12,320 bases of DNA from a virus (taxonomy: Duplodnaviria; Heunggongvirae; Uroviricota; Caudoviricetes): the IMG/VR virus record IMGVR_UViG_2851955134_000006, positions 1 to 12,320 of that record; one strand, given 5' to 3'. A model generated the notes under the pieces. It ran no database searches. It worked only from the letters and a program-made list of their open reading frames with translations, and was not told the DNA's origin. Made by a program: the position numbers and the translations under genes. The stretch's first letter is position 1, and each line of letters starts with the position of its first letter. This document shows, in pieces, positions 1 to 12,320 of the stretch.

Positions 1-1230
1 ATGAGCAGAGCACTTAACAAACTGAGCGATACACAGCTAAGGAAAATCAACGGCACACCCGCCCAAAAAACAGTCTTTCTTAATGACGGTGGAAACCTGA
101 CCGTCAGGCATTCAACCAGCGGCCTTTTAACCTGGTATTTCACCTACAGGGCCGGAACGGGAAGGGGAGCACGACCGGAACGGATTAAGCTGGGAAATTA
201 TCCTGATCTGAGCCTGAAAGCAGCCAGGGAAAAAGCCGCACAGTGCCGCGCATGGCTGGCTGAGGGGAAAAATCCACGTCATGAGATGAATTACACCGTA
301 CAGGAAGCGTTAAAGCCTGTAACGGTTGGCGATGCGCTCACCTACTGGCTTGAGTCGTACGCAAAGGAAAACCGTGTGGATTATGACCCACTGAAAAAGC
401 GGCTAAATAATCACGTAATACAGCACATTGGCGCTATGCCGCTGGATAAATGCGAGCTACGGCACTGGCTGGCCTGTTTTGATCGGGTGGCAAAGCAAGC
501 CCCTGTTTCCGCCGGATTCCTGCTACAGACATGCAAACAGGCGCTTAAGTTCTGCCGGAAGCGGCGCTATGCAATCAGCAACGTTCTTGATGATATGAGT
601 GTTGCTGACGTTGGGAAAAAACCGGATATAAGTCAGCGTGTCTTAAGTAACAAAGAACTTGGCGAATTATTGCAGGCACTGGACAAAAAAATATTTTCCC
701 CTTACTACGTCGCACTAATCCGCCTCCTGATTGTCTTCGGAGCCAGGACAGTAGAACTGAGGCTATCGGAGATCGGGGAGTGGGATTTTACCGAAATGCT
801 CTGGACCGTTCCGAAGGAGCACAGCAAAACGAAGGTAGCCATATTCCGGCCCATACCGGAAGCGATACTGCCGTTCGTCACGCAGCTGGTGGAGCAGAAC
901 AGGCACACGGGCTTATTGCTGGGGGAAGTGAAACAGGAGGCCAGCGTATCGCAGTATGGAAGATTAGCGCACAGGAGGCTTAAACACCCTCACTGGTCAC
1001 TGCATGACATCCGGCGCACCTTTACAACGATGCTGAACGATTTAGGCGTGGATCCTCACGTCGTGGAGCAGCTTACAGGCCACCAGATGCCAGGAATGCA
1101 GCGAGTTTATAATCATTCCCGTTATCTGGATGCGAAACGCAATGCGCTGGATATGTGGGTGGAGCGGTTGGAGATACTGGCGGGAGCACATGAAAACGTA
1201 ACCACGCTACCAGTAGCCAGAAGAAAATAA
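1..1230 (+). CDS. int: Site-specific tyrosine integrase, P4-like family
   Basis: 409-aa ORF. N-terminal arm-binding-like region (LSDTQLRK...LNDGGNLTVRH...WYFTYR), C-terminal catalytic region with R..HxxR..Y-type signature (LHDIRRTFTT...GHQMPGMQRVYNHSRY). ATG sits at base 1, so the true start could lie upstream of the window. Confidence 0.9.
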   Translation: MSRALNKLSDTQLRKINGTPAQKTVFLNDGGNLTVRHSTSGLLTWYFTYRAGTGRGARPERIKLGNYPDLSLKAAREKAAQCRAWLAEGKNPRHEMNYTVQEALKPVTVGDALTYWLESYAKENRVDYDPLKKRLNNHVIQHIGAMPLDKCELRHWLACFDRVAKQAPVSAGFLLQTCKQALKFCRKRRYAISNVLDDMSVADVGKKPDISQRVLSNKELGELLQALDKKIFSPYYVALIRLLIVFGARTVELRLSEIGEWDFTEMLWTVPKEHSKTKVAIFRPIPEAILPFVTQLVEQNRHTGLLLGEVKQEASVSQYGRLAHRRLKHPHWSLHDIRRTFTTMLNDLGVDPHVVEQLTGHQMPGMQRVYNHSRYLDAKRNALDMWVERLEILAGAHENVTTLPVARRK

Positions 1231-1604
1231 TTTTTTTCGTGTTTTTTCAGTATGCGCATACTGGATAAGTGCACAGATACAACGGCGAACAATGTGAAAC
1301 AACGTGGAACAACCACGAACAAGAGGCCGAAAAATATACAGATTTATAAGTTGCTGATTTTTAATGCTCAACTGGTTTTTTATACATTAGCGAATAACGC
1401 TTTAAATAGTGAGAAAAAAGGCATGAAACGAGATTTTATGCCTTTGCATAATACTGAATTAAAATGTTTTTTATTAAAATTACCCCGTTTCTGTAAAATA
1501 CCCGCCACCAACATTTGCCAACTCTGAATCACCCTGACACAATCAGACACATACCAACGCAATAGAACACGAAATAACTCTTTAAGAAACGAAAGGGGGC
1601 AATA

Positions 1605-1793
1605 GTGTTAAGCACTGATCGCTTTATACGTGAAAAAGAATGCGAAAAGCTAACAGGCCTTAGCCGCTCATGCCGCTACCGCCTGGAAAAGGCCGGACAA
1701 TTCCCATCACGGCGTAAGCTGGGCGGTCGTTCCGTTGGCTGGTCTTTATCCGAAGTTCTGGCATGGAAGGAAAGCTGCGAGGCAGTTCACTAA
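1605..1793 (+). CDS. alpA: AlpA-family (prophage CP4-57 regulatory protein-like) HTH transcriptional regulator / excisionase-like protein
   Basis: 62-aa ORF with GTG start and SD-like aaggggg 6 nt upstream. Sequence pattern TGLSRS..YRL...GQFP...LGGRSVGW..SEV..W is typical of AlpA/Xis-like MerR-type HTH proteins, and its position directly after int is typical of P4-like islands and Gram-negative PICIs. Confidence 0.8.
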   Translation: MLSTDRFIREKECEKLTGLSRSCRYRLEKAGQFPSRRKLGGRSVGWSLSEVLAWKESCEAVH

Positions 1794-1934
1794 AAAGACT
1801 GGCGGCACACAGCCGCCACCCATCCACTAATACAGAGATTTAACCATGAAGACTGGATATACGCCCGAACAGGGGCGGGGCTTCGTTCGGCCTTGTGAAA
1901 CTGAAAAACAACAAAATCGCGGTTTTTCAGACAT

Positions 1935-1962
1935 AAAAAAAGCGGCCCCGATAAGGAGCCGC
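1935..1962 (-). terminator. Putative rho-independent terminator for the minus-strand two-gene module, possibly bidirectional
   Basis: Stem gcggcccc / ggagccgc (8 bp, one mismatch) with loop gataa, preceded on the plus strand by an A7 run, which reads as a T7 tract after the stem on the minus strand; lies about 160 bp downstream of the minus-strand ORF ending at 2121. Confidence 0.45.
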
Positions 1963-2120
1963 CTTTCTGAACAATTAACCTACTGCGCAAAAAATGAATA
2001 TGAGCAGTGGGATTATATCAACCGTGTGGCGAAGCGCCACAATTGCCGGATAACGGGCAAAGAAAAGGCCACCTGTCACGGTGGCCAATGTGATCAGTGT
2101 CCTGGCTTGCTGGTGGATTG

Positions 2121-2312
2121 TCAGCCAGGTGGGCGGTTTTTGTTTGCTTTTAAGCGCCGAGGGTATTTCTCGACAAAAGGATCAAGGGCGAACTTATCAG
2201 GAACTTTAAGATTTTCAGTGCGGGTTAATGCCTTATTTATTTCCCTGCGGGTTTTCTCACGCTGGCGCATGATAATTGATAATGCTTTATTTTGTAGTTC
2301 CTGGTTATTCAT
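2121..2312 (-). CDS. Hypothetical small basic protein (63 aa)
   Basis: ATG at 2312-2310 on the minus strand with SD aaggtga 7 nt upstream; the ORF track extends it to a GTG at 2321. Lys/Arg-rich (MNNQELQNKALSIIMRQREKTRREINKALTRTENLK...). Sits downstream of the RHH gene on the same strand. No recognisable family. Confidence 0.4.
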   Translation of the reverse strand: MNNQELQNKALSIIMRQREKTRREINKALTRTENLKVPDKFALDPFVEKYPRRLKANKNRPPG

Positions 2313-2369
2313 AATTATCACCTTTAAAACAATGCGCCGCAGTACCTCACACCACGGCGCTGATAGTAA

Positions 2370-2549
2370 TTATTCTGATTCTTTGGCCTTGCGGCGCTGG
2401 CGGCGTTTGATCTCGCCTTTTGCGGCAGTAACTAAAAAACCAGCGGTACTTTCGCCAGGTTCTTTAAGTTGCTCAATATCATCCATTACTTCATGTGGGA
2501 TTCTGACAGTTGTCATTTGTGATTTTGCGTTCTTTGCACCAGTTGCCAT
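2370..2549 (-). CDS. Ribbon-helix-helix (CopG/Arc/MetJ-like) DNA-binding protein, candidate repressor
   Basis: 59-aa ORF starting MATGAKNAKSQMTTVRIPHEVMDDIEQL, an RHH-like N-terminal beta-strand motif (TVRIP.E....IE.L). Strong SD aggaga 7 nt upstream of the ATG on the minus strand. The ORF track's 118-aa version begins at an upstream ATG with no RBS. Confidence 0.6.
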   Translation of the reverse strand: MATGAKNAKSQMTTVRIPHEVMDDIEQLKEPGESTAGFLVTAAKGEIKRRQRRKAKESE

Positions 2550-2610
2550 TTCTGGATCTCCTAAAAATTGGTGTATGTCAGTATACGCAAAAAAAATGAT
2601 AAAAAAAGGC

Positions 2611-2661
2611 TTGAAGTGTATTTCACCAGTGAGTAAATTAAAAAGCAAAGGTGAAATACAC
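2611..2661 (+). promoter_or_regulatory. Divergent control region: candidate rightward sigma70 promoter (TTGAAG -N17- TAAATT) overlapped by a perfect 12-bp inverted repeat operator
   Basis: gtgtatttcacc at 2616-2627 and its exact reverse complement ggtgaaatacac at 2650-2661, separated by 22 bp. The left arm lies in the promoter spacer and the right arm just downstream of the -10. Located between the minus-strand RHH gene and the plus-strand early operon. Confidence 0.45.
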
Positions 2662-2742
2662 CTGAAAGAGCAACGCCCCGCAGTGCTCGCAACACATGCA
2701 GGGCGTCTAACCACCAACGATAGCAAGAGTATCGAGGTAGCT

Positions 2743-2946
2743 ATGAGAAATCATACCACACACCCGCAAGGGCGGGACTCGCACAACCTGAATAAATACA
2801 TCTGGCGTTTTATCGCCCTGAGCACGGCACAACCGCGCGTAATTCACATCGAGGCCACCAGCGAACAGGAAGCACGTCAGCAATCTCCTGATGGCTGCGT
2901 GATGGTATTCGCCGCCCGTATTCGTCAGGAGGTGTGCCATGATTAA
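2743..2946 (+). CDS. Hypothetical protein (67 aa), first gene of the early operon
   Basis: ATG at 2743 with SD gaggt 5 nt upstream. The stop overlaps the next gene's start (ATG 2939, TAA 2944-2946), implying translational coupling. It is the C-terminal part of the long open frame 1846..2946, which is otherwise judged non-coding. Confidence 0.5.
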   Translation: MRNHTTHPQGRDSHNLNKYIWRFIALSTAQPRVIHIEATSEQEARQQSPDGCVMVFAARIRQEVCHD

Positions 2947-3307
2947 CCTGTCACTTACCGATCTTAACCGCGTTCAGTTTCGTGAGAAATTTACCGGACA
3001 GCTACTCGTCAATGTGGAGAACGGGCGCATAGTGCGTAATTATCACCTGCCGGATGGTGCAATTGCCGGAAGCGTTGAAGCATTGCTTGAACTGGCGGAA
3101 CGTGCGCGACTGATTAAGCCGTCAACGAACCATCACGATGATGATCTGCATTTTACCGGATGTATGGTGAGTCACTACGAAAACGGCGTCGAGGTATCCT
3201 GCGAACAGCTACGCACTGATTGCTGTTTTGGCACTCTGCCGGAATTTATCGAATTGCTGACCAGTTGCGGATATCAGGTTATTCAGGGGGTGCGCCATGT
3301 GCAATAA
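2939..3307 (+). CDS. Hypothetical protein (122 aa)
   Basis: Strong SD aggaggtg 4 nt upstream of the ATG; coupled to flanking genes. No recognisable family. Confidence 0.6.
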   Translation: MINLSLTDLNRVQFREKFTGQLLVNVENGRIVRNYHLPDGAIAGSVEALLELAERARLIKPSTNHHDDDLHFTGCMVSHYENGVEVSCEQLRTDCCFGTLPEFIELLTSCGYQVIQGVRHVQ

Positions 3308-3749
3308 CATCCGTCCGGACGCAGCCGCCGCCGCACTCACTACTCTGATGCACGCGCTTATTGATATTTCTGTTATTGCAGACATGGCGCATAAGCACGC
3401 CACCAGAGAGACGGAATATACAGGGGAAATAATCCCCCATTCGCTGGCCTACGCACAGCTTACCGCTGATATGGCACTGAATGAAGCCAAAGCCATCCTG
3501 ATTGCTGATTGTGAAAATGGGGGGGTTATGCGTGATGATCGTTTTAATGCCCTGAAACAGGAATTTTCCGGCGTTCCTGATAATGCGGCTGATGCGCTTT
3601 CGTCAATGCCAGAGCTTATTAGAGCGGCTTTTTTCTTACTTTCCACGAGAGAATATAAATCAACGGGGCTTGATGTACTGAATATCGCCGCCGATTATGC
3701 TGATTTCGTGACAGAGGTTATTTTAAGAAAAACGACGGACGGGGATTAA
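3297..3749 (+). CDS. Hypothetical protein (150 aa)
   Basis: ATG overlaps the upstream gene's end, with SD caggggg upstream. Protein-like composition. No recognisable family. Confidence 0.6.
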   Translation: MCNNIRPDAAAAALTTLMHALIDISVIADMAHKHATRETEYTGEIIPHSLAYAQLTADMALNEAKAILIADCENGGVMRDDRFNALKQEFSGVPDNAADALSSMPELIRAAFFLLSTREYKSTGLDVLNIAADYADFVTEVILRKTTDGD

Positions 3750-3750
3750 T

Positions 3751-3984
3751 ATGCGTGATATTTACCTAGAAACAATAGACCGCGCATTTAGTGCCATTGT
3801 TTACGCTGAAGGTATGTACGAAATATTGCAAATGTATCTGGATACATTTGGCGATAATGAGCGTGATGTAAAGAATGCGCGGATTATTAAATCTCTGATA
3901 ACTCTCCTTGAACCTGTAATAACAGAGTTGCAGGAAATAGACCTATTGCACGACAGATATAAAGAACAGCACACCGGAGAATAA
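3751..3984 (+). CDS. Hypothetical protein (77 aa)
   Basis: Starts 2 nt after the upstream stop, with SD gacgggga upstream. No recognisable family. Confidence 0.55.
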   Translation: MRDIYLETIDRAFSAIVYAEGMYEILQMYLDTFGDNERDVKNARIIKSLITLLEPVITELQEIDLLHDRYKEQHTGE

Positions 3985-3989
3985 AAATA

Positions 3990-4289
3990 ATGAAACTTAA
4001 ATATTCTGGCTTTACTGCCAGCGGCCCCGCTCGGCCTGAAATCCGCCCCGGCGATATTTTCAAAGATAACTACGGCGGCACGGTAACAATTAAAAGCGTG
4101 GAGGAACGTCGCGTAACTTACCGCCGTGATGGCTACGAATATGACTGCGTGATGCCTGTTTATCAGTTCCGGCGTGATTTTTCTCTGGTACAGAACGCAA
4201 CACGCGGTAAGCCCACCAGCAGGGAAAAAGCACGGGAAAATATTAAGAAAATAAAAAGCATGCTCAGCGCATCCAGAGGTAAAAAATGA
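3990..4289 (+). CDS. Hypothetical protein (99 aa), basic C-terminus
   Basis: SD ccggaga upstream; its stop overlaps the start of the replicase gene (ATGA at 4286-4289). Confidence 0.55.
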   Translation: MKLKYSGFTASGPARPEIRPGDIFKDNYGGTVTIKSVEERRVTYRRDGYEYDCVMPVYQFRRDFSLVQNATRGKPTSREKARENIKKIKSMLSASRGKK

Positions 4290-5692
4290 AACTGGCACCG
4301 AACGTAAAACTGTTACCGAAAGATAAACACACTGAGGCGGTTATTTTTGCGGGTGATAATGCTCACTCCTTTGCAGAACATTACATGATTGCACAGGCCA
4401 AAAAAGCAGGCGATCCCATCCCTCCGGTTTACCTGGGCCGTTATCAGTTAAGCGAACTGGACAACTTACAGATTGTTGATGAAGGACGATACAGGGCAAA
4501 GGTCATACGCGCCGGAAACCTGGACGATATGCAGATGCTGACCATTGCCACCAAACTGGCGATCGCAGGTGTCCAGGAAGCACGGTTACTTTCAGAGAAT
4601 TTCGAACTGCTGGAGGACTGGAGCGAGCAACTACCGCGGCTTAAAGAAACCTGGGAACGCGGGGAAAGTCTGGTCATGAATGGTGGAAAGCGAAAAATCA
4701 CACTTCCCATCTCATGGGGTTCTGAGGGATTCGACGCGCAGCAAAGCTACGTAATTAAGGGGCTTATTCCGGCTGAGTCATTATGCAGCACCTACGGGGC
4801 CAGCGGTTCTTATAAATCGTTCCTGGCTATTTCCTGGTCGTGCCATGTTGCCACAGGTATGGCATGGGGAGGCCGCAGGGTAAGTAAGGGCGCTGTTATC
4901 TATATCGCTGGCGAAGGCAGTATGGGCGTAAAACGCCGCGTTAAGGCGTGGGAGATAACCCATGACAAGGTGGTTACAGATTTGTGCATCATTAACGCGC
5001 CGGTATTCCCCGCATCGCCTGACTATGTGGAGCAGGTTATCAGGACTGCCGGACTTGTTAAGAGCAGAACGGGCGAAAATGTGCCGCTGATTGTGATCGA
5101 CACGCTGGCCCGTTGCTTTGGTGGGAATGATGAAAATGATTCCCGTGATATGGGCGCATTTATCCAGGGGTGTGACGCGATAAAGCAGGCTACAGGGGCC
5201 ACGGTGCTGGTGGTTCACCATTCCGGCAAGGATGAAACAAAGGGGGCGCGTGGTTCCAGCGCATTCCGTGCCGCGCTTGATGCAGAGTACCGAATCAGCC
5301 GGGAAAATTCAGACGTTACAGCACTGGTGGCGGCGTGTACGAAGATGAAGGACGCAGAGGAGCCAAAAGAAAGCGCATACGACCTTAAAAGCGTGGAGGT
5401 GTTCACCGATACAGATGGCGAAGAAATTGTGTCTATGGTGGTGATTGACGTTCCCCGCGCCCCTGCTGAACTGGAGCGCATCGAGGAAGCAGGCAACAAA
5501 TCGGAGAATCACGCCGCGCTATGGCAGTGCATCAGAACGCGGACGGCACACAAAGAGCCATGCACTATCGCCCTTCTCCGCGACGATATGAAAAAGCTGG
5601 GGTATGAGATGAAGCACTTCCGGCGCTGGCTGTCCAAGCTGGAAAAAGACGGCGTGATTTGTGTCGATGGGGATGATGTTTACCCACTGTAA
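4286..5692 (+). CDS. Replication initiator ATPase / helicase, RecA-like P-loop NTPase (RepA/AAA_25-like), satellite replicase
   Basis: 468-aa ORF with a P-loop-like segment (LIPAESLCSTYGASGSYKSFLAISW), a Walker B-like hhhhD segment (PLIVIDTLARCFG) and a VVHHSGKDETKG segment typical of RepA/DnaB-type ATPases. Immediately followed by an iteron array. Confidence 0.8.
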   Translation: MKLAPNVKLLPKDKHTEAVIFAGDNAHSFAEHYMIAQAKKAGDPIPPVYLGRYQLSELDNLQIVDEGRYRAKVIRAGNLDDMQMLTIATKLAIAGVQEARLLSENFELLEDWSEQLPRLKETWERGESLVMNGGKRKITLPISWGSEGFDAQQSYVIKGLIPAESLCSTYGASGSYKSFLAISWSCHVATGMAWGGRRVSKGAVIYIAGEGSMGVKRRVKAWEITHDKVVTDLCIINAPVFPASPDYVEQVIRTAGLVKSRTGENVPLIVIDTLARCFGGNDENDSRDMGAFIQGCDAIKQATGATVLVVHHSGKDETKGARGSSAFRAALDAEYRISRENSDVTALVAACTKMKDAEEPKESAYDLKSVEVFTDTDGEEIVSMVVIDVPRAPAELERIEEAGNKSENHAALWQCIRTRTAHKEPCTIALLRDDMKKLGYEMKHFRRWLSKLEKDGVICVDGDDVYPL

Positions 5693-5895
5693 AAAGTGGG
5701 TAGTAAAAGTGGGGAGAGTGGGGAATTTAACAAAATTGAAACATAATTCCCCACTTTCCCACCTGTATACATCCAAAAAAGTGGGGAGCAAAAAACGCAA
5801 TGAAAAACAAAGCATTAGATTCACTCAAAAAACGAAGTGGGGAGCAAGTGGGGAATTTAAAAAGTGGGGAGCAAAAGTGGGGAGTGGTGGGGAAT
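5693..5895. repeat. Iteron array, putative origin of replication of the element
   Basis: At least eight direct copies plus one inverted copy of the core AGTGGGGA, in two flavours (AGTGGGGAGCA and AGTGGGGAATTT), at roughly 5708, 5717, 5780, 5836, 5847, 5863 and 5876, with a variant at 5695 and the inverted copy at 5746-5757. AT-rich spacers. Sits directly downstream of the replicase gene. Confidence 0.7.
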
Positions 5896-5938
5896 GAATA
5901 AAAACCGAACAGCAGGACAAAATACAGAAGGTGAATTT

Positions 5939-6262
5939 ATGAACACTGAAATTGAAACACTGAGCATATCAACTGCCCTTCCTGGCTGGTGGGCTAAGTT
6001 CAAAGACGACGACGGCACGGAATGGTATAGCCCAATTGCTGCATGGGCGCTTTGTGAGATCCACCATTTCGGCACCGGAGATACTTACCGCGAAATCTTA
6101 CCCGTGCTGACCAGTGAGGTGGGCGTGAGTCCGCATAGTCCTGATGAGGGAATGTTCGAGTGCCTTTATCTGCCAGATAAGAAGTTTGTTCACTGCGGTG
6201 AGTCATGGGTATTTGCCTGGTATCCGGTTAACGACAGCAGCAATAGCGGTACTCTGGAGTAA
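5939..6262 (+). CDS. Hypothetical protein (107 aa; alternative start at ATG 5894 gives 122 aa)
   Basis: SD aggtga 4 nt upstream of ATG 5939. The longer ORF-track version starts inside the iteron array and is less likely. Confidence 0.5.
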   Translation: MNTEIETLSISTALPGWWAKFKDDDGTEWYSPIAAWALCEIHHFGTGDTYREILPVLTSEVGVSPHSPDEGMFECLYLPDKKFVHCGESWVFAWYPVNDSSNSGTLE

Positions 6263-6265
6263 ATC

Positions 6266-6508
6266 ATGAAGGTAAACCACAAAAAGACAGATCACCGCGC
6301 CATTGACCTTACAGAGCACTGGCTGAGGGTGGCGATAAAAATCATCGACCGCAACGCGGGAGAAGGATACGCGAAGGAACATCCCGAACTGATTAGCGCA
6401 TTCATGACAACGGCAGCTGCAAACTTTTCCACGCTGACAGAACGGGAGATTGCCGAAGCGCAACAGGTGACAACCATCAACGTTAAAACCAGTGAGGTGG
6501 AATCATGA
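6266..6508 (+). CDS. Hypothetical protein (80 aa)
   Basis: SD ggag 6 nt upstream; its stop overlaps the SSB start (ATGA). Confidence 0.5.
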   Translation: MKVNHKKTDHRAIDLTEHWLRVAIKIIDRNAGEGYAKEHPELISAFMTTAAANFSTLTEREIAEAQQVTTINVKTSEVES

Positions 6509-6915
6509 CAGCACAGATAGCGGCTTACGGGCGGCTGGTGGCTGACCCACAGTTAAAGACCACCAGCAAGGGTACACAAATGGCGATGGCGAGTATGGCT
6601 GTCCCCCTGCCGTGCAGCCAGGCAGATGACGGAACGGCGACGATGTGGTTATCCGTCCTGGCGTTTGGCAGACAGGCCGACGCACTGGCAAAACACCAGA
6701 AAGGCGAACTGGTGAGCGTGGCGGGTAACATGCAGGTGAGCCAGTGGACCGGACAGAACGGGGAAACGCGGCAGGGCTGGCAGGTTATCGCAGACAGCGT
6801 AATCAGTGCGCGGACAGTGCGACCGGGCGGAAAAACACGCAAAACCACAGGCACACAGGGTAATCAGCCACCAGCGGGAGACGATGACCCTTACGGTGAT
6901 GATATTCCGTTCTGA
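6505..6915 (+). CDS. ssb: Single-stranded DNA-binding protein (short, phage/plasmid-type SSB)
   Basis: 136-aa ORF with an OB-fold-like N-terminal region, a Gly/Gln/Pro-rich linker and the hallmark acidic SSB C-terminal tail DDDPYGDDIPF. SD gaggtgg upstream. Confidence 0.8.
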   Translation: MTAQIAAYGRLVADPQLKTTSKGTQMAMASMAVPLPCSQADDGTATMWLSVLAFGRQADALAKHQKGELVSVAGNMQVSQWTGQNGETRQGWQVIADSVISARTVRPGGKTRKTTGTQGNQPPAGDDDPYGDDIPF

Positions 6916-6925
6916 GGGGGTGACG

Positions 6926-7198
6926 ATGGTACATGACCGGATAGCGGAGGAACTGGAGGCGAAAGGATTTTACCGGAGGGCGGCCGCGCGATGGGGTGAA
7001 GTTATGTGGCTGGTGAGCACTGACAAGGAGCGCGAACAGGTGGCAATGCGACGGCTGGAATGTTCCCGGAAGGCACAGAGGCCACCGGAGCCACCGGATG
7101 ATTTAGGCGCTCTGAAAAGGTCAGTTAATCGCACTGAAAAACAAATGGGGATAGCTGGTATTGGCAAAGCAATATGGCGCAACTACCCGCAGAAGTGA
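6926..7198 (+). CDS. PerC-family transcriptional regulator-like protein (90 aa)
   Basis: ATG at 6926 with SD gaggggg upstream. The N-terminal segment MVHDRIAEELEAKGFYRRAAARWGEVMWL matches the PerC/Pch-family pattern (LE.KG.YRRAA.RW) as recalled from memory. The ORF track's longer version overlaps ssb and lacks an RBS. Confidence 0.5.
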   Translation: MVHDRIAEELEAKGFYRRAAARWGEVMWLVSTDKEREQVAMRRLECSRKAQRPPEPPDDLGALKRSVNRTEKQMGIAGIGKAIWRNYPQK

Positions 7199-7205
7199 GC
7201 ACACA

Positions 7206-7227
7206 GCCGGAGCAATCCGGCTTTTTT
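7206..7227 (+). terminator. Rho-independent terminator ending the replication/regulation operon
   Basis: Stem gccgga / tccggc, loop gcaa, then TTTTTT; 8 nt after the PerC-like stop codon. Confidence 0.6.
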
Positions 7228-7233
7228 ACGCCT

Positions 7234-7275
7234 AAAAAAAGCCCGATAAGGTCACAGGGGGCTTATCGGGCTTTT
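7234..7275. terminator. Second hairpin, likely a bidirectional terminator
   Basis: A7 run, then 10-bp perfect stem gcccgataag / cttatcgggc with an 11-nt loop, then tttt; it gives a T7 tract when read on the minus strand. Confidence 0.5.
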
Positions 7276-7354
7276 GCATATGAGGTTTTTTTTGGTGCAC
7301 TGACACACATGAACGGGATAATCATTTCATAATTTGCAACACAACTCAACATCA

Positions 7355-7403
7355 TTGCACAAAATGCAATCATGATTATAATCAGAGCTGGATGAACATC
7401 CAG
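7355..7403 (+). promoter_or_regulatory. Putative sigma70 promoter of the head operon with overlapping dyad symmetries
   Basis: TTGCAC at 7355-7360, a 16-nt spacer, then a consensus TATAAT at 7377-7382. The -10 is embedded in the perfect 12-bp palindrome tgattataatca (7373-7384), and an inverted repeat ctggatg-aa-catccag (7388-7403) sits at the predicted transcription start. Confidence 0.5.
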
Positions 7404-7438
7404 TTATGATTTTTTAAGTCAAAGAGGAATTTCTGACT

Positions 7439-7645
7439 ATGGCAGAAGAGAAAAAAGGCGGGGTGACGGTCTACATAAGCCCCGACATCGTGGAGGCGCT
7501 CAAGGAACGCCACCAGCAGAATGTAAAAGCAGGCATTGCGGCAGGACTTGATCCGCTGGCGATGGTTGAGCCGTCAACAGGCTGGCAGGTGCGCACCTAT
7601 TTACGTGCGGCGCTGGGTATCAATCAGGTTCACGGAGGTGAATAA
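7439..7645 (+). CDS. Hypothetical protein (68 aa), first gene of the head module
   Basis: SD aagaggaa upstream; its stop overlaps the capsid gene start (TAATG). Confidence 0.5.
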   Translation: MAEEKKGGVTVYISPDIVEALKERHQQNVKAGIAAGLDPLAMVEPSTGWQVRTYLRAALGINQVHGGE

Positions 7646-8700
7646 TGACAGGCAAAGCAACGGCACTTACAACTAACCAGCTTTTCGCGTACCTGAATCG
7701 CGGGGATATTGCGGATTTTAAATTCAGCCCTCTGTTTACCACGCTGTTTTTCCCGAACGTGGCGACCTTCAACACCCAAAACATCATGCTGGACACCCTG
7801 GACATTGAAGAGGTTACGATGTCAGCGTTCTGTTCGCCTATGGTGGGTAGTCAGGTCCAGCGCGATAAAGGGTACGAAACCAGCACGATTAAACCCGGCT
7901 ACATGAAGCCAAAGCACGAAATCGATCCAACAAAGACCATCATGCGCATGGCTGGAGAAGATCCGGCACAGCTTAACGATCCAACTTACCGCCGTATGCG
8001 CCTGATTACTGGCAACATGCGCCGCCAGATAAACGCCATTAAGGCGCGCGTGGAATGGCTGGCGGTGAATGCGGTAACGACCGGAAAAAACATCATTGAG
8101 GGCGAAGGCATAGAACGCTATGAAATCGACTGGAAAATACCGGAAAACTGCATCATACAGCAGGCCAGTGGTAAAAAATGGTCCCAGCAGGATAAAGACA
8201 TGCACGACCCAATCTATGACATCGAGCTTTATGCTGATCAGGCAGGTTGCCCCGCCAACGTCATGATTATGGGCGGTGAGGTATGGCGCACATTACGCAG
8301 CTTTAAAAAATTCCGTGAACTGTACGATCTTTCCCGTGGGTCAGAATCCGCCGCCGAGCTGGCCTGTAAAAACCTGGGCGAAGTGGTGAGCTTTAAAGGC
8401 TATCTTGGTGATCTGGCCCTTATCGTCTATTCCGGCAAATACACTGACAGCGACGGCACCGAAAAATATTTCCTTGAGCCTGATTTGCTGGTCCTGGGTA
8501 ACACCAACAATAAAGGGCTGGTGGCCTATGGTGCGATTATGGATCAGGAAGCGGTAAGAACGGGCGCAACGCAAAACATGTACTACCCGAAAAACTGGAT
8601 TGAGGACGGCGATCCGGCGATTGAGTACGTGCAGACGCACAGCGCACCGCAGCCGGTACCGGCAGATATTCGCAAATTTGTTACCGTCAAAATTGCTTAA
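7645..8700 (+). CDS. Major capsid protein, lambda gpE family
   Basis: 351-aa ORF with SD ggaggtg upstream. Blocks of similarity to lambda gpE as recalled from memory: DFKFSPLF..LFF near the N-terminus, PGYMKPKHEIDP (lambda PGYVKPKHEVNP), DPTYRRMRLITGNMR (lambda DPAYRRRRIIMQNMR), and C-terminal YPKNWIEDGDPA...SAP...FVTVKIA (lambda YPKNWVTTGDPA...SAP...FVSVQLA). Confidence 0.9.
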   Translation: MTGKATALTTNQLFAYLNRGDIADFKFSPLFTTLFFPNVATFNTQNIMLDTLDIEEVTMSAFCSPMVGSQVQRDKGYETSTIKPGYMKPKHEIDPTKTIMRMAGEDPAQLNDPTYRRMRLITGNMRRQINAIKARVEWLAVNAVTTGKNIIEGEGIERYEIDWKIPENCIIQQASGKKWSQQDKDMHDPIYDIELYADQAGCPANVMIMGGEVWRTLRSFKKFRELYDLSRGSESAAELACKNLGEVVSFKGYLGDLALIVYSGKYTDSDGTEKYFLEPDLLVLGNTNNKGLVAYGAIMDQEAVRTGATQNMYYPKNWIEDGDPAIEYVQTHSAPQPVPADIRKFVTVKIA

Positions 8701-8711
8701 CGGGGGATTCT

Positions 8712-9047
8712 ATGGACGCTCCATACATTGAGTTATTTTCAGGCAGCCAGCAGGTATCCACGACGCTGGTACATTTTGCCGCTGATGCTGGCGTTATTCA
8801 GGAATTTACCCCTCTGATGCTGGCAGACAATGGCGAGTTTAAGGCGTGGGATGGTCAGGAATCTGGCAAAGCTGTTTATCTGACTTCGCACCCCGTGGAC
8901 ACGTCAAAGCAGAAATCAGCACAGTGTTACAAAACGGGGATATTCAATATTGCCGCCGTTAACTGGCCTGATAGCGTCGACACCGATGCGAAAAAATGCG
9001 CCGCCTTTGCGGGTTCCGGCGTATCCGTTCAGCCGCTGGCCCGATAA
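8712..9047 (+). CDS. Head decoration protein, lambda gpD family
   Basis: 111-aa ORF with SD cggggga upstream. Similarity to lambda gpD as recalled from memory: TPLMLADNGEFKAWDG (lambda TPLMLDTSSRKLVAWDG), YKTGIF (lambda YKSGTF), and C-terminal KKCAAFAGSGVSV (lambda KKRTAFAGTAISIV). Confidence 0.8.
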   Translation: MDAPYIELFSGSQQVSTTLVHFAADAGVIQEFTPLMLADNGEFKAWDGQESGKAVYLTSHPVDTSKQKSAQCYKTGIFNIAAVNWPDSVDTDAKKCAAFAGSGVSVQPLAR

Positions 9048-9059
9048 GCAGGGGGAACG

Positions 9060-9473
9060 ATGGCAACGAATGAAAGTATCATGACGCTACCGCTGGCGAG
9101 TAAATTTAAAGCCGAAGCGCGGGCAATGGCTGACAGAGGTTTATCAACCTACGAGGCCATACACCGACTAAACAAACTGGAAGAACAGGACAAGCCGCGC
9201 GCTGATGCGATTATGGCGCTTCATGAATCTGACGACTACCAGCCGCTGTTACGTGCAATGGCTAACGTGCCTTGTATCGATGTTGGTACGGCTAAAAGCA
9301 TCCTTAGCATGACCATAGAGCAGGAACGCCCGAAGGTTGCACCAGAGCTTACTTCAGCCTTTGAAAACTTTATGGACATGCACAGCCCGAAAGCCGTATC
9401 AGCTGGCATGGCATACGATGGCAGAACCCCGGGCGATGACGGCGACATCGATCGCATACTGAAAACCATCTGA
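9060..9473 (+). CDS. Hypothetical protein (137 aa), last gene of the head module
   Basis: SD agggggaa upstream; followed 7 nt later by a terminator. No recognisable family. Confidence 0.55.
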   Translation: MATNESIMTLPLASKFKAEARAMADRGLSTYEAIHRLNKLEEQDKPRADAIMALHESDDYQPLLRAMANVPCIDVGTAKSILSMTIEQERPKVAPELTSAFENFMDMHSPKAVSAGMAYDGRTPGDDGDIDRILKTI

Positions 9474-9479
9474 GACAAG

Positions 9480-9502
9480 GCCGGAGAAATCCGGCTTTTT
9501 TT
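9480..9502 (+). terminator. Rho-independent terminator ending the head operon
   Basis: Stem gccgga / tccggc, loop gaaa, then TTTTTTT. Nearly identical to the terminator at 7206-7227. Confidence 0.65.
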
Positions 9503-9507
9503 GCGGG

Positions 9508-9575
9508 TCCTTTCCGGCATGTGGACCCGTTACGGGGCGTCGACCTCGCGCGTTTTCGCTATTTATGACGTTTTT
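9508..9575 (+). other. Lambda-like cohesive-end site (cos-1: cosQ-like flank, cosN, start of cosB)
   Basis: CGTTACGGGGCGTCGACCTCGCGCGTTTTCGCTATTTATGACGTTTTTCCG closely matches the lambda cos region as recalled (…GGGCGGCGACCTCGCGGGTTTTCGCTATTTATGAAAATTTTCCGG…). The predicted 12-nt cohesive end GGGCGTCGACCT (9535-9546) differs from lambda GGGCGGCGACCT at one position. Located about 90 bp upstream of a Nu1-like gene on the same strand. Confidence 0.75.
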
Positions 9576-9635
9576 CCGTGAAGGTGACACCACCACCACT
9601 TGATTAACATTTAATCGCATGATTAAGGTAACATT

Positions 9636-10076
9636 ATGATTGATAAAGCTTGTTTTGTGAGTCAGCAGGAAATAGCAGAACATTTCAAGGTCAACAGAAC
9701 CACTATTCGCGCATGGACCAAACAGGGCATGCCATATCTTGATGCGGATCGCGGAAAGTCCGGCGGTTATCACATCGGACACACATTATTCTGGTGCATG
9801 GGTAAAAGCCATCTTGATGCTATTGAGTACCACGGAGAAACCAGCGCACTGGAAAAGATTATGGTTGCCAGGTTGATTGCGTCAGAGCGCGACGAGTATT
9901 TCAGTGAAGAAACAGAACAGCGATTTGATGAAGGTTTGCATATTTACGGCTATTCACCGGAAGATGTGAGCAAGGCACGAAATAAAATGGCTGGCTTTCT
10001 GGCTGGGTGGCGTCATGCCGTAAGCGTTCGCCGTGCCAGCATGGAACAATCAGTCGTTACAGAACAGCAAAGTTAA
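9636..10076 (+). CDS. Nu1-like terminase small subunit homolog (N-terminal winged HTH); candidate packaging-redirection (Rpp-like) protein
   Basis: 146-aa ORF. N-terminus FVSQQEIAEHFKVNRTTIRAWTKQGMPYLDADRGKSGG resembles lambda Nu1 (QLADIFGASIRTIQNWQEQGMPVLRGGGKG, recalled from memory). The C-terminal region is shorter and unrelated to the Nu1 gpA-binding region. No large terminase gene follows. Confidence 0.7.
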   Translation: MIDKACFVSQQEIAEHFKVNRTTIRAWTKQGMPYLDADRGKSGGYHIGHTLFWCMGKSHLDAIEYHGETSALEKIMVARLIASERDEYFSEETEQRFDEGLHIYGYSPEDVSKARNKMAGFLAGWRHAVSVRRASMEQSVVTEQQS

Positions 10077-10079
10077 AAA

Positions 10080-10260
10080 TCACTTTCTGTTACGCCATCA
10101 AATACGCAATACAACAACCACGTATTTTTTTAAAACTATTTGATTCAATTAGCATTTTTTTATTTTTAGCATCAAAAAAACACTATCAGGTTGTTGTATT
10201 GCTCTTTATTTTTACTTAGTTATCAAATGGATATGACAAACAATTAAACAACAACCTCCC
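10080..10260. repeat. AT-rich region with a 14-bp perfect inverted repeat and short direct repeats
   Basis: gcaatacaacaacc at 10106-10119 and its reverse complement ggttgttgtattgc at 10189-10202 (69 bp apart), a third partial copy aacaacaacc at 10247-10256, and direct repeats of ttagcat in a T-rich context between the arms. Confidence 0.45.
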
Positions 10261-10272
10261 TCTAAAAAAGCT

Positions 10273-10345
10273 CATAAATAGCGAAAAACCGCGAGGTCGA
10301 CGCCCCGTAACGGGCCATAATTCCAGGAAGGACCCGACGACACCA
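10273..10345 (-). other. Second lambda-like cos site (cos-2), inverted relative to cos-1
   Basis: The reverse complement of 10273-10345 reads ggtgtcgtcgggtccttcctggaattatggCCCGTTACGGGGCGTCGACCTCGCGgtttttcgctatttatga. A 25-bp core is identical to cos-1, with flanking similarity on both sides (gggtcctttccgg versus gggtccttcctgg; cgttttcgctatttatga versus gtttttcgctatttatga). Cohesive-end equivalent at 10294-10305. Confidence 0.7.
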
Positions 10346-10369
10346 GACTATCAGAGCGATGGGCGCACA

Positions 10370-10651
10370 ATGACAGAAGCCGAACTACTGGGATTAATCC
10401 GCCGCGTTACCGGAATCAGCCAGCAGCATGACGAACAGGCCACGCAGCCGGACAGCGTGACCGCCGAAAATTACGCGTGTGTTGTTGCTGAGGTGATGCG
10501 CCGTGATGGTATTGAGCTTAACGGCGTGGATATGCGCAACATACGAACCAGAGTCCTTGAGTTGCTGGCATACCGTCGCCGTTCTCAACAACGGAGGGAG
10601 AGCGCGAAAAATACTTACCAGTGGAAGAAGCCGGAACGACTGCGTACGTAA
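10370..10651 (+). CDS. Hypothetical protein (93 aa)
   Basis: ORF with a weak SD; followed about 70 bp later by a plus-strand hairpin with a T tract. Arg-rich C-terminus. No recognisable family. Confidence 0.4.
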   Translation: MTEAELLGLIRRVTGISQQHDEQATQPDSVTAENYACVVAEVMRRDGIELNGVDMRNIRTRVLELLAYRRRSQQRRESAKNTYQWKKPERLRT

Positions 10652-10721
10652 TACGTACGGACATCGAGATAAAGACGGTTTAACCATCCATTAAAAATCG
10701 ACGTGATTTTGTGCTTTCCGG

Positions 10722-10745
10722 ATGACGTGGCCAACGTCATTTTTT
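10722..10745 (+). terminator. Putative rho-independent terminator
   Basis: Stem atgacgt / acgtcat, loop ggcca, followed by ttttt. Confidence 0.5.
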
Positions 10746-10967
10746 AGCGAAAAATTCTGATTAAGGTCATTGGCTGAATGGTCATAATGACCACTCCTAC
10801 AGAACAGGTAAAGCCCACCAGCCTGATTAAAGGTTAACCGGAAAAAAAGCCAGGTATCAATCTCGATATGTGGATCCCCATATCGACAGCAACGCCCCCT
10901 TAAAATTACCCGCCTTTATATTTCTTGTGCCTATTTGTTCCACGTTGTTTCATACAGTGCACCGATC

Positions 10968-10991
10968 GGTGTAGTTAATGGTGTAGTTAAT
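10968..10991. repeat. Perfect tandem duplication of a 12-bp unit (ggtgtagttaat x2), preceded by the palindrome accgatcggt
   Basis: Read directly: 10968-10979 and 10980-10991 are identical; the palindrome is at 10961-10970. Confidence 0.6.
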
Positions 10992-11084
10992 TTGCGATTT
11001 TTGGCACTTTTTTTAGTGTAAGTTGTTTAATTAAATCAATACGTTATTGAAAATAAGTTATAGATATATCCCATTTATGACTCC

Positions 11085-12320
11085 TTATTTCTGCCAGGCA
11101 AGTTGATAAAGCATGAGTGCCAACGTTTTGACCCCTTCGGCAAGGTCGGTAATATTGGTGCGTTCCGCCGGGTTATGGCTGATCCCATTGATGCTGGGAA
11201 TGAAAATCATGCAGGTTGGTACGCGAGGCGCGAAAATTTGCGCGTCGTGCCCGGCACCACTGTGCATCACCCGGTAATTCAGTTTTTCGCTTTCACACAA
11301 TTCTGTCAGGGTGGCGACCAGGTCCTTATTCATCGGCACGGGTTCTTCGTCCATCCATAAATCGATATCAATACCAATGTCCATTTCATCGCAAATCGCC
11401 CGCATGTCGTTTTCTAACTGCTGAGTGAAATCGCGCAGCACGGCGGCGTCGGTATGACGACAATCAATGGTGAATGTGGTTTTACCCGGCACCACATTCA
11501 CCGTATTCGGGCGCGGCTCCACCTTACCAAAGGTCAGCACCAGCGGGTCGCCCATCTTTTTCGCTTTTTCGATCGACTGATGGCAAATGCGACTGAAAGC
11601 GTAAACTGTATCACGACGGTAACCCATCGGCGTGGTGCCTGCATGGTTTGATTCGCCGTTCAGCGTCACCGTATAGCGACGTTGCCCGACAATTGCATTC
11701 ACCACGCCAATTGATTGCCCATTACTTTCCAGCACACAGCCCTGTTCGATATGCAGTTCGACAAAGGCTTTAATATCCTGACGCGGAGTTAGCGGGGCGT
11801 CCGGCAGAGTAAATCCGCAAGCCTTCATCGCATCGACAAAACTATTTCCTTTGGCATCACAGATATTCCGCACGTCGTCAGGATTCGCCAGCCCAAAGAT
11901 ATTTTTACTGCCCCAGAAAACATACGGGAAGCGGCTGCCTTCTTCTTCCGCCATCGCCACCACTTCAACCGTACGTAACGGCGCGCCGTATTGCCTTTTC
12001 AACCAGTCAATTGCCAGCCACGCCGCCAGCGCGCCGAATTGCCCGTCGAGGTTACCGCCGTTAACCACGGTATCGATATGCGAACCGCTCAGAACCACTT
12101 CCTGTGGATATTCGGTGCCACTCAGGCGACCGTATAAATTCCCCACTTCATCGAAACGTGTTTCCAGCCCGCTTGCTGCCATTCTTTTTTTAAATTGCTG
12201 CTGGGTTTCCAGCCATTCCGGCGAATAAAGTAAACGGGTCATCCCACCCGTTGGGTCAGCGCCAAAAGAGGAAAGCCAGGGCAGCGTTTCTTCTATGGCT
12301 TGACGGAAATGTGTAATCAT
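11085..12320 (-). CDS. allC: Allantoate amidohydrolase (M20 peptidase / hydantoinase-carbamoylase family), host chromosomal gene
   Basis: Complete 411-aa ORF with ATG at 12320-12318. M20-type metal-binding motifs (SGSHIDTV, DGQFG, EEEGSRF, HNPAE). Full-length match to my recollection of enterobacterial AllC (MITHFRQAIEETLPWLSSFGADP...). Confidence 0.8.
   Translation of the reverse strand: MITHFRQAIEETLPWLSSFGADPTGGMTRLLYSPEWLETQQQFKKRMAASGLETRFDEVGNLYGRLSGTEYPQEVVLSGSHIDTVVNGGNLDGQFGALAAWLAIDWLKRQYGAPLRTVEVVAMAEEEGSRFPYVFWGSKNIFGLANPDDVRNICDAKGNSFVDAMKACGFTLPDAPLTPRQDIKAFVELHIEQGCVLESNGQSIGVVNAIVGQRRYTVTLNGESNHAGTTPMGYRRDTVYAFSRICHQSIEKAKKMGDPLVLTFGKVEPRPNTVNVVPGKTTFTIDCRHTDAAVLRDFTQQLENDMRAICDEMDIGIDIDLWMDEEPVPMNKDLVATLTELCESEKLNYRVMHSGAGHDAQIFAPRVPTCMIFIPSINGISHNPAERTNITDLAEGVKTLALMLYQLAWQK

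Follow-up and report, generated by a model that had tools for sequence, protein, structure and literature searches.

The 59-aa protein encoded on the minus strand of this island, a member of the YlcI/YnfO family with a predicted ribbon-helix-helix (RHH) fold, probably represses the island's early operon through three copies of a 13-bp pseudo-palindromic site in a shared control region. The DNA analysed, hereafter the window, comprises 12,320 nucleotides (positions 1 to 12,320) of IMG/VR virus record IMGVR_UViG_2851955134_000006. We hold the model as a whole to be probable; in it YlcI is the repressor, gene and sites form an exchangeable cassette, AlpA-driven read-through may bypass repression and the neighbouring 63-aa protein (p63) is a separate accessory function.

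By gene content and order, the element as a whole is a phage-inducible chromosomal island (PICI) from Escherichia coli, one of the EcCICFT073 type, to which it is closely related. The ORF list and domain assignments identified int, alpA, primase/helicase, SSB and capsid-related late genes, arranged in one direction over ~10-12 kb as expected for islands of this type. The gene order is that of EcCICFT073, and the AlpA and Icd-like proteins of the two islands are 95% and 94% identical, respectively. The two minus-strand genes reported in the preliminary description, encoding 59 and 63 amino acids, are present, each preceded by a Shine-Dalgarno sequence, and both are annotated by PGAP in an island of E. 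coli GF4 that is 99.4% identical to that of the window; the identical GF4 protein bears the RefSeq name 'YlcI/YnfO family protein'. As in the layout of a PICI master repressor, ylcI is divergent from the early operon and the sites lie in the control region between them, and EcCICFT073 carries a ylcI homologue in the same arrangement. The early-operon leader is structured: the 100-nt leader gave a folding z of -3.5, and consensus pairs had compensatory changes in 9 of 14 cases across 20 loci. It had no match in Rfam. The sole Rfam match in the window, Spy1186876 at 7237-7423, was rejected as spurious (27 bits against a gathering score of 208, on a terminator-like palindrome). Coordinates are collected in Table 1.

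Table 1. Features in and around the control region, numbered by position in the window.
Feature	Position	Strand	Details
AlpA activator gene	1605..1793	+	Pfam PF05930 at 5e-18
Eta-like long open frame, 366 codons	1846..2946	+	begins 53 nt past alpA and extends, in frame, into the Icd-like gene
Intrinsic-terminator-like hairpin and T-run after p63	2067..2086	-	z = -2.9
p63, 63-aa basic helical protein, portable accessory gene	2121..2312	-	ATG 2312, stop 2121, AAGGTGAT Shine-Dalgarno
Conserved hairpin before p63	2334..2360	-	11-12 pairs, MFE -19.5 kcal/mol, z = -2.4
ylcI, 59-aa YlcI/YnfO-family predicted RHH protein, proposed island repressor	2370..2549	-	ATG 2549, stop 2370, AGGAG Shine-Dalgarno
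O1, putative operator copy (third copy)	2570..2582		GGTGTATGTCAGT; abuts the -10 and covers the likely start site of ylcI's own promoter
Proposed ylcI promoter -10 (TATACT on minus strand)	2580..2585	-	AGTATA or near variant at +31/+32 in 33/36 distinct loci
P_E -35 (TTGAAG)	2611..2616	+	TTGAnn at +61/+62 in 34/36 distinct loci
O2, putative operator copy	2615..2627		AGTGTATTTCACC; inside the P_E spacer
P_E -10 (TAAATT)	2634..2639	+	TAnnnT 17-18 nt after the -35 in 35/36 loci
O3, putative operator copy	2650..2662		GGTGAAATACACC; directly downstream of the P_E -10, over the predicted early-transcript start
Structured early-operon leader	2673..2734	+	hairpin 1 (2673-2706), conserved CUCUAACCAC stretch, hairpin 2 (2718-2734) directly before the Shine-Dalgarno
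Icd-like (P4 Kil-like) gene, first of the early operon, proposed to be under P_E control	2743..2946	+	NF033153 3.8e-20; phrog_6196 7.8e-45

The 59-aa protein was assigned to NCBIfam family NF041551 (formerly DUF3950), to which YlcI (DLP12) and YnfO (Qin) of E. coli K-12 also belong, with a score of 64 bits where the curated cut-off is 30 (E = 9.2e-18); the match covered residues 9-50 and all 42 profile positions (1-42). The variant encoded by one related island (L002) shares the motif NIRFP...NFSAWV with K-12 YlcI. Of 5426 complete E. coli genomes, about 980 had matches to ylcI DNA and 547 the full-length gene. The RHH assignment made in the preliminary description agrees with the predicted monomer model, which has a strand-helix-helix topology of ~45 residues. 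The N-terminal strand alternates as expected for this fold, with variable polar residues at positions 12 and 14, an invariant R16 and mostly hydrophobic residues at 13, 15 and 17 across classes. Helix 2 is followed by a short basic tail and nothing beyond. Sequence similarity to known RHH proteins was not detected, as hhalign probabilities were 9% with Arc and 3.7% with CopG, no RHH family in Pfam matched at E <= 1, and a profile search of the PDB gave nothing below E = 1. For YlcI and p63 alike, there was no Pfam family, no significant match in single-sequence PDB searches and no tblastn match in 50,697 phage records. PADLOC yielded nothing meaningful. The top Foldseek match to the YlcI model was SeqA-N, a relationship that was dropped when hhalign gave nothing. 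No functional study of YlcI/YnfO was found in the literature searched.

The preliminary description placed a perfect 12-bp inverted repeat over a plausible early promoter and read it as the operator of a satellite master repressor. This repeat (GTGTATTTCACC / GGTGAAATACAC) is present at 2616-2627 and 2650-2661, one base away from the start implied there; ~0.03 such repeats are expected per window by chance, and 5 of 300 shuffles produced one. The repressor-operator reading remains the best one in the light of site architecture and co-variation, but the operator appears to consist of three 13-bp sites, O1 to O3, rather than one inverted repeat. Exact matches to GTGTATKTCA number three in the 12.3-kb window, all within 92 bp, and what is conserved is three copies of the pseudo-palindrome R-GTG-N5-CAC-Y at fixed positions. 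The orientation of O3 and its distance from O2 vary between specificity classes; in five of them O3 is a direct repeat of O2, and inverted orientation is not the conserved feature. A footprint of conservation was seen among 12 class-1 loci (the class of the window) from several genera, in which 12 of 13 columns of O1, 11 of 13 of O2 and 12 of 13 of O3 were invariant, compared with none of the six columns following O2 and only 0-1 in the spacers beside the three sites. In almost every distinct locus, O1 stands 21 nt away from the ATG of ylcI. A survey of the most repeated 9-mer upstream of ylcI, from which the sites of L003 and L024 were read, found it three times in 36 of 38 loci, at ~+21, +66 and +88 to +104 from the ATG.

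Conserved elements around these sites support the early promoter, P_E, as previously suggested (Table 1). In one further locus its -35 lies 69 nt from the ylcI ATG, and the element often reads TTGACG or TTGACA. On the opposite strand, the proposed -10 is invariant among class-1 loci, and from its position we infer a promoter for ylcI itself. A generic promoter scan of the window called neither promoter, the P_E -10 scoring below threshold. YlcI is presumably a dimer that would recognise the three sites by inserting its paired N-terminal strands into the major groove. Bound at O2, in the P_E spacer, and at O3, over the start of the early transcript, it would jointly block the Icd-like/replication operon; at O1, by the -10 of its own promoter, it would exert negative autoregulation.

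Comparison of about 36 related loci from many Enterobacterales genera revealed that O1, O2 and O3 change together, in step with the outward-facing beta-strand residues of YlcI. O2 departs from O1 or O3 of the same locus at ~1 of 11 bases, against 5.25 on average between beta-strand classes. The strand motif SQMTTVR (class 1) pairs with the core GTGTATTTC, SQALKAR (class 3, that of EcCICFT073) with GTGGGCCAC, SLQVSVR with GTGGTGTTC, SQS(V/I)T(A/V)R with GTGTAAGAC and SQKLQAR with TGGA-N-TCC, and further motifs likewise have their own cores. When the window was compared with L040 and L002, AlpA was 92-95% identical, and when L003 was included the Icd-like protein was 90-94% identical, but YlcI only 38-64%. 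Part of the co-variation reflects linkage, the protein gene and its sites being adjacent and inherited together. Function is favoured over linkage because three separate sites change concertedly while AlpA and the Icd-like protein do not. We regard the co-variation as strong comparative evidence for a repressor-operator immunity cassette, and binding by YlcI appears likely because its strand residues co-vary with the sites. The exchangeable unit would consist of the N-terminal two thirds of ylcI plus the three sites, in at least nine specificities, between conserved flanks; it is bordered by the 3' end of ylcI and, at its opposite edge, by the structured leader.

Where islands lack YlcI, the place ahead of the Icd-like gene is occupied by isrK and a C4 antisense RNA, and YlcI-type islands have neither. 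In the window, C4 (RF01695) and isrK (RF01394) were not detected by Rfam search at E <= 1; the positive controls, islands L036, L038 and L039, gave C4 scores of 72-81 bits and isrK scores of 49-52 bits. Immunity RNAs have been described in this zone of some islands (PMC10111431). The immunity region of P4 has the same order, with an alpA/vis homologue followed by a long frame, in which a short Kil/Icd-like gene is nested and the immunity determinant lies (PMC10111431), and the C4/isrK modules of sister islands fill exactly this P4-like slot. In P4 (PLL - vis - eta/kil, with the CI C4-type RNA) a processed RNA acts on the transcript, whereas here the slot is occupied by an opposite-strand protein gene with putative DNA operators.

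The eta-like frame runs antisense to p63, ylcI and the operator sites. It has no stop across ylcI in 35 of 35 distinct loci, and in 32 of 35 it has none over the 190-nt promoter/leader region, in which other frames have 1-12 stops, though a long frame could stay open for reasons other than translation. The possibility that this 366-codon frame is the sole real gene and ylcI spurious was rejected in view of the third-position variation of ylcI, its pN/pS, its confident fold and the co-variation of strand and sites. A hairpin after alpA has a T-run only on the minus strand, which makes plus-strand read-through past alpA plausible, and the terminator scan found no plus-strand terminator there. 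In P4, eta is read through from an upstream promoter and coupled to the alpA homologue, and eta/kil provides the precedent for a nested long frame (PMC10111431). By analogy, AlpA-activated upstream transcription would traverse the region on the plus strand, crossing ylcI and p63 antisense before entering the early operon; translated as the eta-like frame, the transcript would escape polarity. Such read-through would both bypass repression at the promoter and interfere with synthesis of the repressor, as the antisense nesting of ylcI and p63 in a conserved frame suggests. Overexpression of AlpA alone induces EcCICFT073 (PMC6092414), an island with a ylcI homologue, and the repressor can therefore be bypassed; the 'master' in the reading proposed earlier needs qualifying. 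The published account of these islands makes do with AlpA, and no repressor phenotype is on record for them; the founding paper on Gram-negative PICIs described just the activator AlpA and called a global repressor 'unclear' (PMC6092414).

Several known systems resemble this one in part. The repressor Stl of Gram-positive PICIs is a helix-turn-helix protein, its fold unrelated to that of YlcI, and is lifted by a helper-phage protein, whereas here relief would come from the helper-induced activator AlpA through the proposed read-through bypass. We know of no helper antirepressor for these islands. In position and logic, however, Stl/Rpr of the SaPIs are alike, the repressor gene being divergent from the satellite early operon and the island kept quiescent (PMC6092414). 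Arc and Mnt of phage P22 (immI), with the former of which YlcI has no significant sequence relationship, differ in using one 21-bp, tetramer-bound operator instead of three well-separated 13-bp sites; helix 2 of YlcI is much longer than theirs and ends in an invariant basic tail, EIKRRQRR, and the operon controlled here would be the replication/early operon of a satellite. CopG of pMV158 and the DNA-binding domains of RHH antitoxins (CopA_SO, ParD, TacA) share fold and approximate size with the YlcI model. The CopG operator is a ~13-bp pseudo-symmetric element that overlaps a promoter and serves autoregulation, to which the YlcI sites may be likened. Unlike these proteins, YlcI has no conserved downstream toxin or copy-control target, and its cassette comes in many specificities.

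More tentatively, and with somewhat less than even confidence, we suggest that YlcI/YnfO RHH proteins are the missing repressors of a large class of Gram-negative PICIs including EcCICFT073, with at least nine orthogonal, swappable specificities that are interchangeable with C4 modules, and that their genes lie antisense within an eta-like frame whose translated read-through, driven by AlpA, circumvents the repressor and shuts it off as well. If so, the silence of EcCICFT073-type islands would be explained and a DUF-type family whose DNA is matched in about 980 of the 5426 E. coli genomes would gain a function. Protein-based and RNA-based immunity modules would be swapped at one locus. The family would amount to a naturally occurring collection of small, orthogonal repressor-operator pairs, with strand residues 12 and 14 corresponding to the site's central 5 bp, and the antisense nesting would make a P4-style read-through switch directly testable in a PICI.

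Other explanations of the sites and of the 59-aa protein have less in their favour. That YlcI binds the sites without being the maintenance repressor, and works as an activator, as a modulator of Cro-like or late type, or as a protein that binds a centromere or packaging site in the manner of omega or ParG, is unlikely. Foldseek matches to its model do include omega and other multi-site binders, and K-12 ylcI and ynfO have cos and nohD of lambdoid prophages as neighbours and are not found upstream of an early operon of Icd-like type, with DLP12 ylcI divergent from nohD, the terminase small-subunit gene. Yet, in a near-consensus sigma-70 promoter, O2 occupies the spacer and O3 covers the start site, which is a repressing geometry, ylcI is transcribed away from the early operon, an immunity RNA fills the same slot in other islands, and the window ORF list contains no partition ATPase gene near ylcI. 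It is very improbable that another island protein, AlpA or the Icd-like protein, binds the sites and the 59-aa protein does something else. Two PHROG families that match the Icd-like protein, phrog_6196 and phrog_1743, are labelled 'transcriptional repressor', a label that presumably goes back to older annotation of P4's immunity region. AlpA is an experimentally shown regulator of EcCICFT073 (PMC6092414). Islands with wholly different sites, however, have 90-95% identity in both proteins, and it is the RHH strand that tracks the sites. We give still less credence to the inverted repeat acting as an RNA hairpin or terminator instead of a protein-binding site: O3 alone can fold into a small hairpin, at the predicted leader's 5' end, but the predicted start site is downstream of O2, pairing between O2 and O3 is not conserved given the five classes with direct copies, and O1, 45 bp away, is oriented like O2.

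The preliminary description regarded the 63-aa ORF as a partner of the RHH protein and offered a type II toxin-antitoxin pair as an alternative, with the RHH protein as autoregulating antitoxin and p63 as toxin. This is a scarcely credible reading of the locus. Judged by comparison of related islands, a check proposed at the time, p63 is conserved and coding (pN/pS 0.37-0.60), hence a real gene, though independent of ylcI. Its relatives share the C-terminal motif FALExF(V/L)xKYPRRLKxxKNRPPG but are few: no more than 7 clusters came from 5.8 billion proteins and 16 representatives from 1.84 billion. The two genes are not conserved as a pair: none of the 32 YlcI loci of other species has a p63 relative, and full-length p63 occurs in 10 of 5426 E. 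coli genomes compared with 547 for full-length ylcI. Beside the C4 modules of L036, L038 and L039, p63-like genes stand alone without an RHH gene, where a lone toxin would not be tolerated. Since p63 moves independently, being found in some islands beside the RHH protein, in others beside C4 RNA and in others again absent, a toxin-antitoxin pairing is not supported. Similarity to known toxins was also lacking: p63 matched nothing significantly in Pfam, NCBIfam, PADLOC or the PDB (ZorE, its best PADLOC hit, has E = 0.008 and carries no meaning), and its AF2 model is one long helix at residues 3-33 with short elements (pTM 0.40), no fold worth searching and not that of RelE/ParE. YlcI, with 59 residues in all, has no domain past helix 2 to neutralise a toxin, and the genes are separated by a 57-bp gap with a hairpin. 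On this comparative evidence p63 is neither an obligate partner of the RHH protein nor its toxin, and it would be a separate small, basic, helical product of the same strand. For the gap hairpin at 2334-2360 there are two readings, a 5' element belonging to the p63 unit or a weak terminator behind ylcI. A role solely as ylcI terminator was set aside: the same hairpin, with compensatory changes, precedes the p63-like genes of L036 and L038, both without ylcI, and has no U-run there.

The two minus-strand open reading frames of the preliminary description, one encoding a 59-aa RHH protein and the other a 63-aa polypeptide, were both confirmed; each has a good Shine-Dalgarno sequence and is annotated by RefSeq in the island of E. 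coli GF4, to which positions 1500-2941 of the window are 99.4% identical (first 1.4 kb of a 1.5-kb query). The genes are arranged as in EcCICFT073, which serves as the model for Gram-negative phage-inducible chromosomal islands (PICIs); AlpA and the Icd-like protein share 95% and 94% identity, respectively, with their counterparts there. The 59-aa protein passed the NCBIfam model of the YlcI/YnfO family (64 bits against a cut-off of 30) and its gene is designated hereafter as ylcI. This family is restricted to Enterobacterales (179 clusters), and no functional study of it was found in the literature searched. Entropy by codon position (30.5, 23.9, 66.8) gave ylcI a coding signature, with a median pN/pS of 0.385. 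As sequence-level and Foldseek comparisons of YlcI gave no significant match, it is assigned to the RHH superfamily by its predicted fold only. Outward-facing positions 12 and 14 vary between classes of loci (those sharing a beta-strand motif and a site core) and R16 is invariant; hhalign paired positions 12, 14 and 16 with Gln9, Asn11 and Arg13 of Arc, the base-contacting residues of that protein.

Coordinates of the main features (L036, L038 and L039 are sister islands; other positions are in the window)
Feature	Position	Strand	Basis or remark
Integrase	1-1230	+	ORF and domain listing
AlpA	1605-1793	+	ORF and domain listing
Long frame	ATG 1846, open from 1831, to 2946	+	366 codons
p63 (63-aa gene)	2121-2312	-	between alpA and plus-strand operon
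ylcI	2370-2549	-	between alpA and plus-strand operon
Candidate site O1	2570-2582 (~+21 from ylcI ATG)		abuts ylcI -10; repeated 9-mer, 36/38 loci
Proposed ylcI -10	2580-2585	-	conserved TATACT position
Proposed early promoter P_E, -35	2611-2616	+	conserved TTGAnn position
Candidate site O2	2615-2627 (~+66 from ylcI ATG)		within P_E spacer; repeated 9-mer, 36/38 loci
Proposed P_E, -10	2634-2639	+	conserved TAnnnT spacing
Candidate site O3	2650-2662 (+88 to +104 from ylcI ATG)		directly past P_E -10; repeated 9-mer, 36/38 loci
Leader hairpins	2673-2706, 2718-2734	+	conserved CUCUAACCAC stretch between
Icd-like protein, first in plus-strand operon	2743-2946	+	ORF and domain listing
Rest of operon (small ORFs, DUF4222, SSB, PerC, decoration protein)		+	ORF and domain listing
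RepA-like helicase	4286-5692	+	ORF and domain listing
Lambda-E-like capsid protein	7645-8700	+	ORF and domain listing
Amidohydrolase gene, chromosomal	right end of window		ORF and domain listing
isrK and C4 modules	L036 4416-4606; L038 4782-4970; L039 4782-4997 and 5272-5463		upstream of Icd-like genes

The perfect 12-bp inverted repeat proposed earlier as the operator was present (2616-2627 / 2650-2661); chance predicts about 0.03 of them per window, and 5 of 300 shuffled sequences had one. A single inverted repeat is not the whole arrangement, however, since a third copy lies at O1, and GTGTATKTCA is matched exactly just three times in the window, each time inside the same 92 bp. Among the loci compared, 32 from other species found with the 59-aa protein as query and several E. 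coli islands, the layout was constant, with ylcI divergent from the Icd-like gene and about 190 bp between them. Of 36 distinct loci, 34 have a TTGAnn element 61-62 nt away from the ylcI start codon and 35 have TAnnnT 17-18 nt further on; TATACT on the minus strand was found at +31 in the same comparison. The most repeated 9-mer upstream of ylcI was present three times in 36 of 38 loci. The geometry of O1-O3 is that of a repressor that would block the early promoter and limit its own synthesis, an ordinary mechanism in which a small RHH repressor acts on operators that overlap the promoters; its nearest parallels in logic are Arc/Mnt of P22 and CopG. In E. coli K-12 DLP12 (L041, 4752-5880), cos lies between ylcI and the divergently oriented nohD (terminase small subunit), a context unlike that of the islands; the variant in the related island L002 is of the YlcI-proper subtype, as is K-12 YlcI.

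The outer GTG...CAC arms are common to the sites and their centres vary from locus to locus, the three sites of each locus varying in concert: within one locus about 1 base in 11 separates O2 from O1 or O3, a figure that rises to 5.25 when loci of another class are compared. These site classes pair one to one with the N-terminal strand motif of YlcI.

Pairing of YlcI strand motifs with site cores
Strand motif	Site core
SQMTT(V/I)R	GTGTAT(T/G)TC
SQALKAR (EcCICFT073)	GTGGGCCAC
SLQVSVR	GTGGTGTTC
SQS(V/I)T(A/V)R	GTGTAAGAC
SQKLQAR	TGGA-N-TCC
SQKMSAR	TGGGTGCCA
SQQIVSR	GTGGCATTC
SQQLNAR	GTGCGATTC
SAKKNIR	TGTGCGCAC

Linkage of gene and sites alone cannot explain concerted change at three separate sites. 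Recognition by another island protein is disfavoured by the candidate regulators AlpA and the Icd-like protein, which do not change with the sites: between the window and related YlcI islands, the Icd-like protein is 90-94% identical (L040, L002, L003) and AlpA 92-95% (L040, L002), YlcI just 38-64% (L040, L002, L003). Within the window's class, represented by 12 distinct loci from Escherichia, Yersinia, Pectobacterium, Kosakonia, Hafnia and other genera, 12 of 13 columns were invariant in O1, 11 of 13 in O2 and 12 of 13 in O3, compared with 0-1 in the adjoining spacers. Because the variable block stops at conserved flanks, the ylcI 3' end and the early leader, that block behaves like a mosaic immunity cassette. 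In L036, L038 and L039, which lack YlcI, isrK and C4 antisense RNAs, of the P4 CI / P1 C4 type of immunity, lie immediately upstream of the Icd-like gene, the module being present twice in L039; Rfam searches found no C4/isrK RNA in YlcI-type islands, the window and EcCICFT073 included. This positional replacement supports an immunity role for the YlcI cassette.

The 63-aa ORF had been regarded as the partner of the RHH gene, possibly as the toxin of an addiction pair. Its homologues have conserved ends, MxxxELQ..ALSI..RQREK and FALExF(V/L)xKYPRRLKxxKNRPPG, with varying length and a pN/pS of 0.37-0.60, indicating that p63 is a real gene, albeit of a very small family (16 representatives among 1.84 billion proteins); the 57-aa gene at the same position in EcCICFT073 is probably a distant homologue (hhalign probability 83%). 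The partnership did not hold, as no p63 relative occurs at any of the 32 other-species YlcI loci, p63 is found without ylcI beside C4 modules, and, among 5426 E. coli genomes, full-length copies of p63 occur in just 10 but those of ylcI in 547. A hairpin of 11-12 pairs (2334-2360, minus strand; L036 counterpart ~4205-4231) lies directly ahead of the p63 Shine-Dalgarno sequence. It is kept with compensatory changes even in islands without upstream ylcI, and may be a 5' stabiliser or processing site. The toxin-antitoxin reading is unlikely given the independence of p63 from ylcI, its own 5' hairpin and the lack of a significant match to toxin or defence families. The structure model, a single long helix and a short motif, is uninformative as to fold. 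The most that can be said is that p63 encodes a portable small basic protein from the strand that is transcribed while the island is quiescent.

With a fold z-score of -3.5, the early leader (2646-2742) counts as structured. Its two conserved hairpins, for which there is no Rfam family, have compensatory substitutions at 9 of their 14 pairs (20 loci). The second, at or directly before the Shine-Dalgarno sequence, suggests translational or termination control.

The long plus-strand frame passes antisense through the control region as well as ylcI and p63, and enters the Icd-like gene in frame. In all 35 distinct loci compared, an equivalent frame had no stop opposite ylcI; in 32 of the 35 it was also open over the 190-nt control region, an A+T-rich stretch with 1-12 stops in the two remaining frames. 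In many loci it opens a few bases from the alpA stop. PGAP labels for its pieces vary among L001-L040 ('Icd-like', 'ash family', partial hypothetical protein), and its N-terminal part in EcCICFT073 has faint Bro-N / antirepressor similarity. P4 shares the arrangement, with vis followed by eta nested with kil, and there eta translation from an upstream promoter allows transcription to proceed despite immunity (PMC10111431, section 20). The hairpin 3' of alpA has a T-run on the minus strand only, and no plus-strand terminator was found between alpA and P_E in the window. Three successive hairpins between p63 and alpA (1797-1820, ~1940-1965, 2067-2086) have T-runs on the minus strand only; they would halt antisense transcripts before alpA and leave plus-strand read-through free. 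EcCICFT073 is induced by overexpressing AlpA alone (PMC6092414). Based on this induction, the P4-like frame and the lack of a plus-strand terminator, we propose that AlpA-activated read-through would bypass the repressed promoter and interfere with ylcI. Three points are new relative to the literature searched: the putative assignment of the YlcI/YnfO family as repressor of EcCICFT073-type islands, for which the existence of a repressor had been described as unclear (PMC6092414); the proposed set of protein-operator pairs of matching specificity, for which C4 RNA immunity can be exchanged; and the antisense nesting of ylcI within an eta-like frame. Comparative sequence evidence is the basis of every functional statement on ylcI, its sites and read-through.

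In GF4, the near-identical island is flanked by roxA and phoQ. On its right the window instead ends in an allantoate-amidohydrolase-like gene (1-1230 and 11085-12320 compared with GF4), and similarity to GF4 ends at ~2941, which together indicate that the two islands are inserted at different sites and that the early genes are mosaic. As in EcCICFT073, the capsid genes (7645-9047, plus strand) encode a major capsid protein resembling lambda E and a decoration protein resembling D; the ORF list of the window contained no portal or protease gene. A perfect 14-bp palindrome at 7237-7275 (AAAAGCCCGATAAG ... CTTATCGGGCTTTT), flanked on both sides by A/T runs, separates the PerC-like gene from the capsid-related genes and looks like a bidirectional terminator; a weak Rfam match there was spurious. 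Short direct and inverted repeats (AAAGTGGGGA / AGTGGGGAATT) cluster at 5700-5790, directly 3' of the helicase gene, the usual position of a PICI replication origin.
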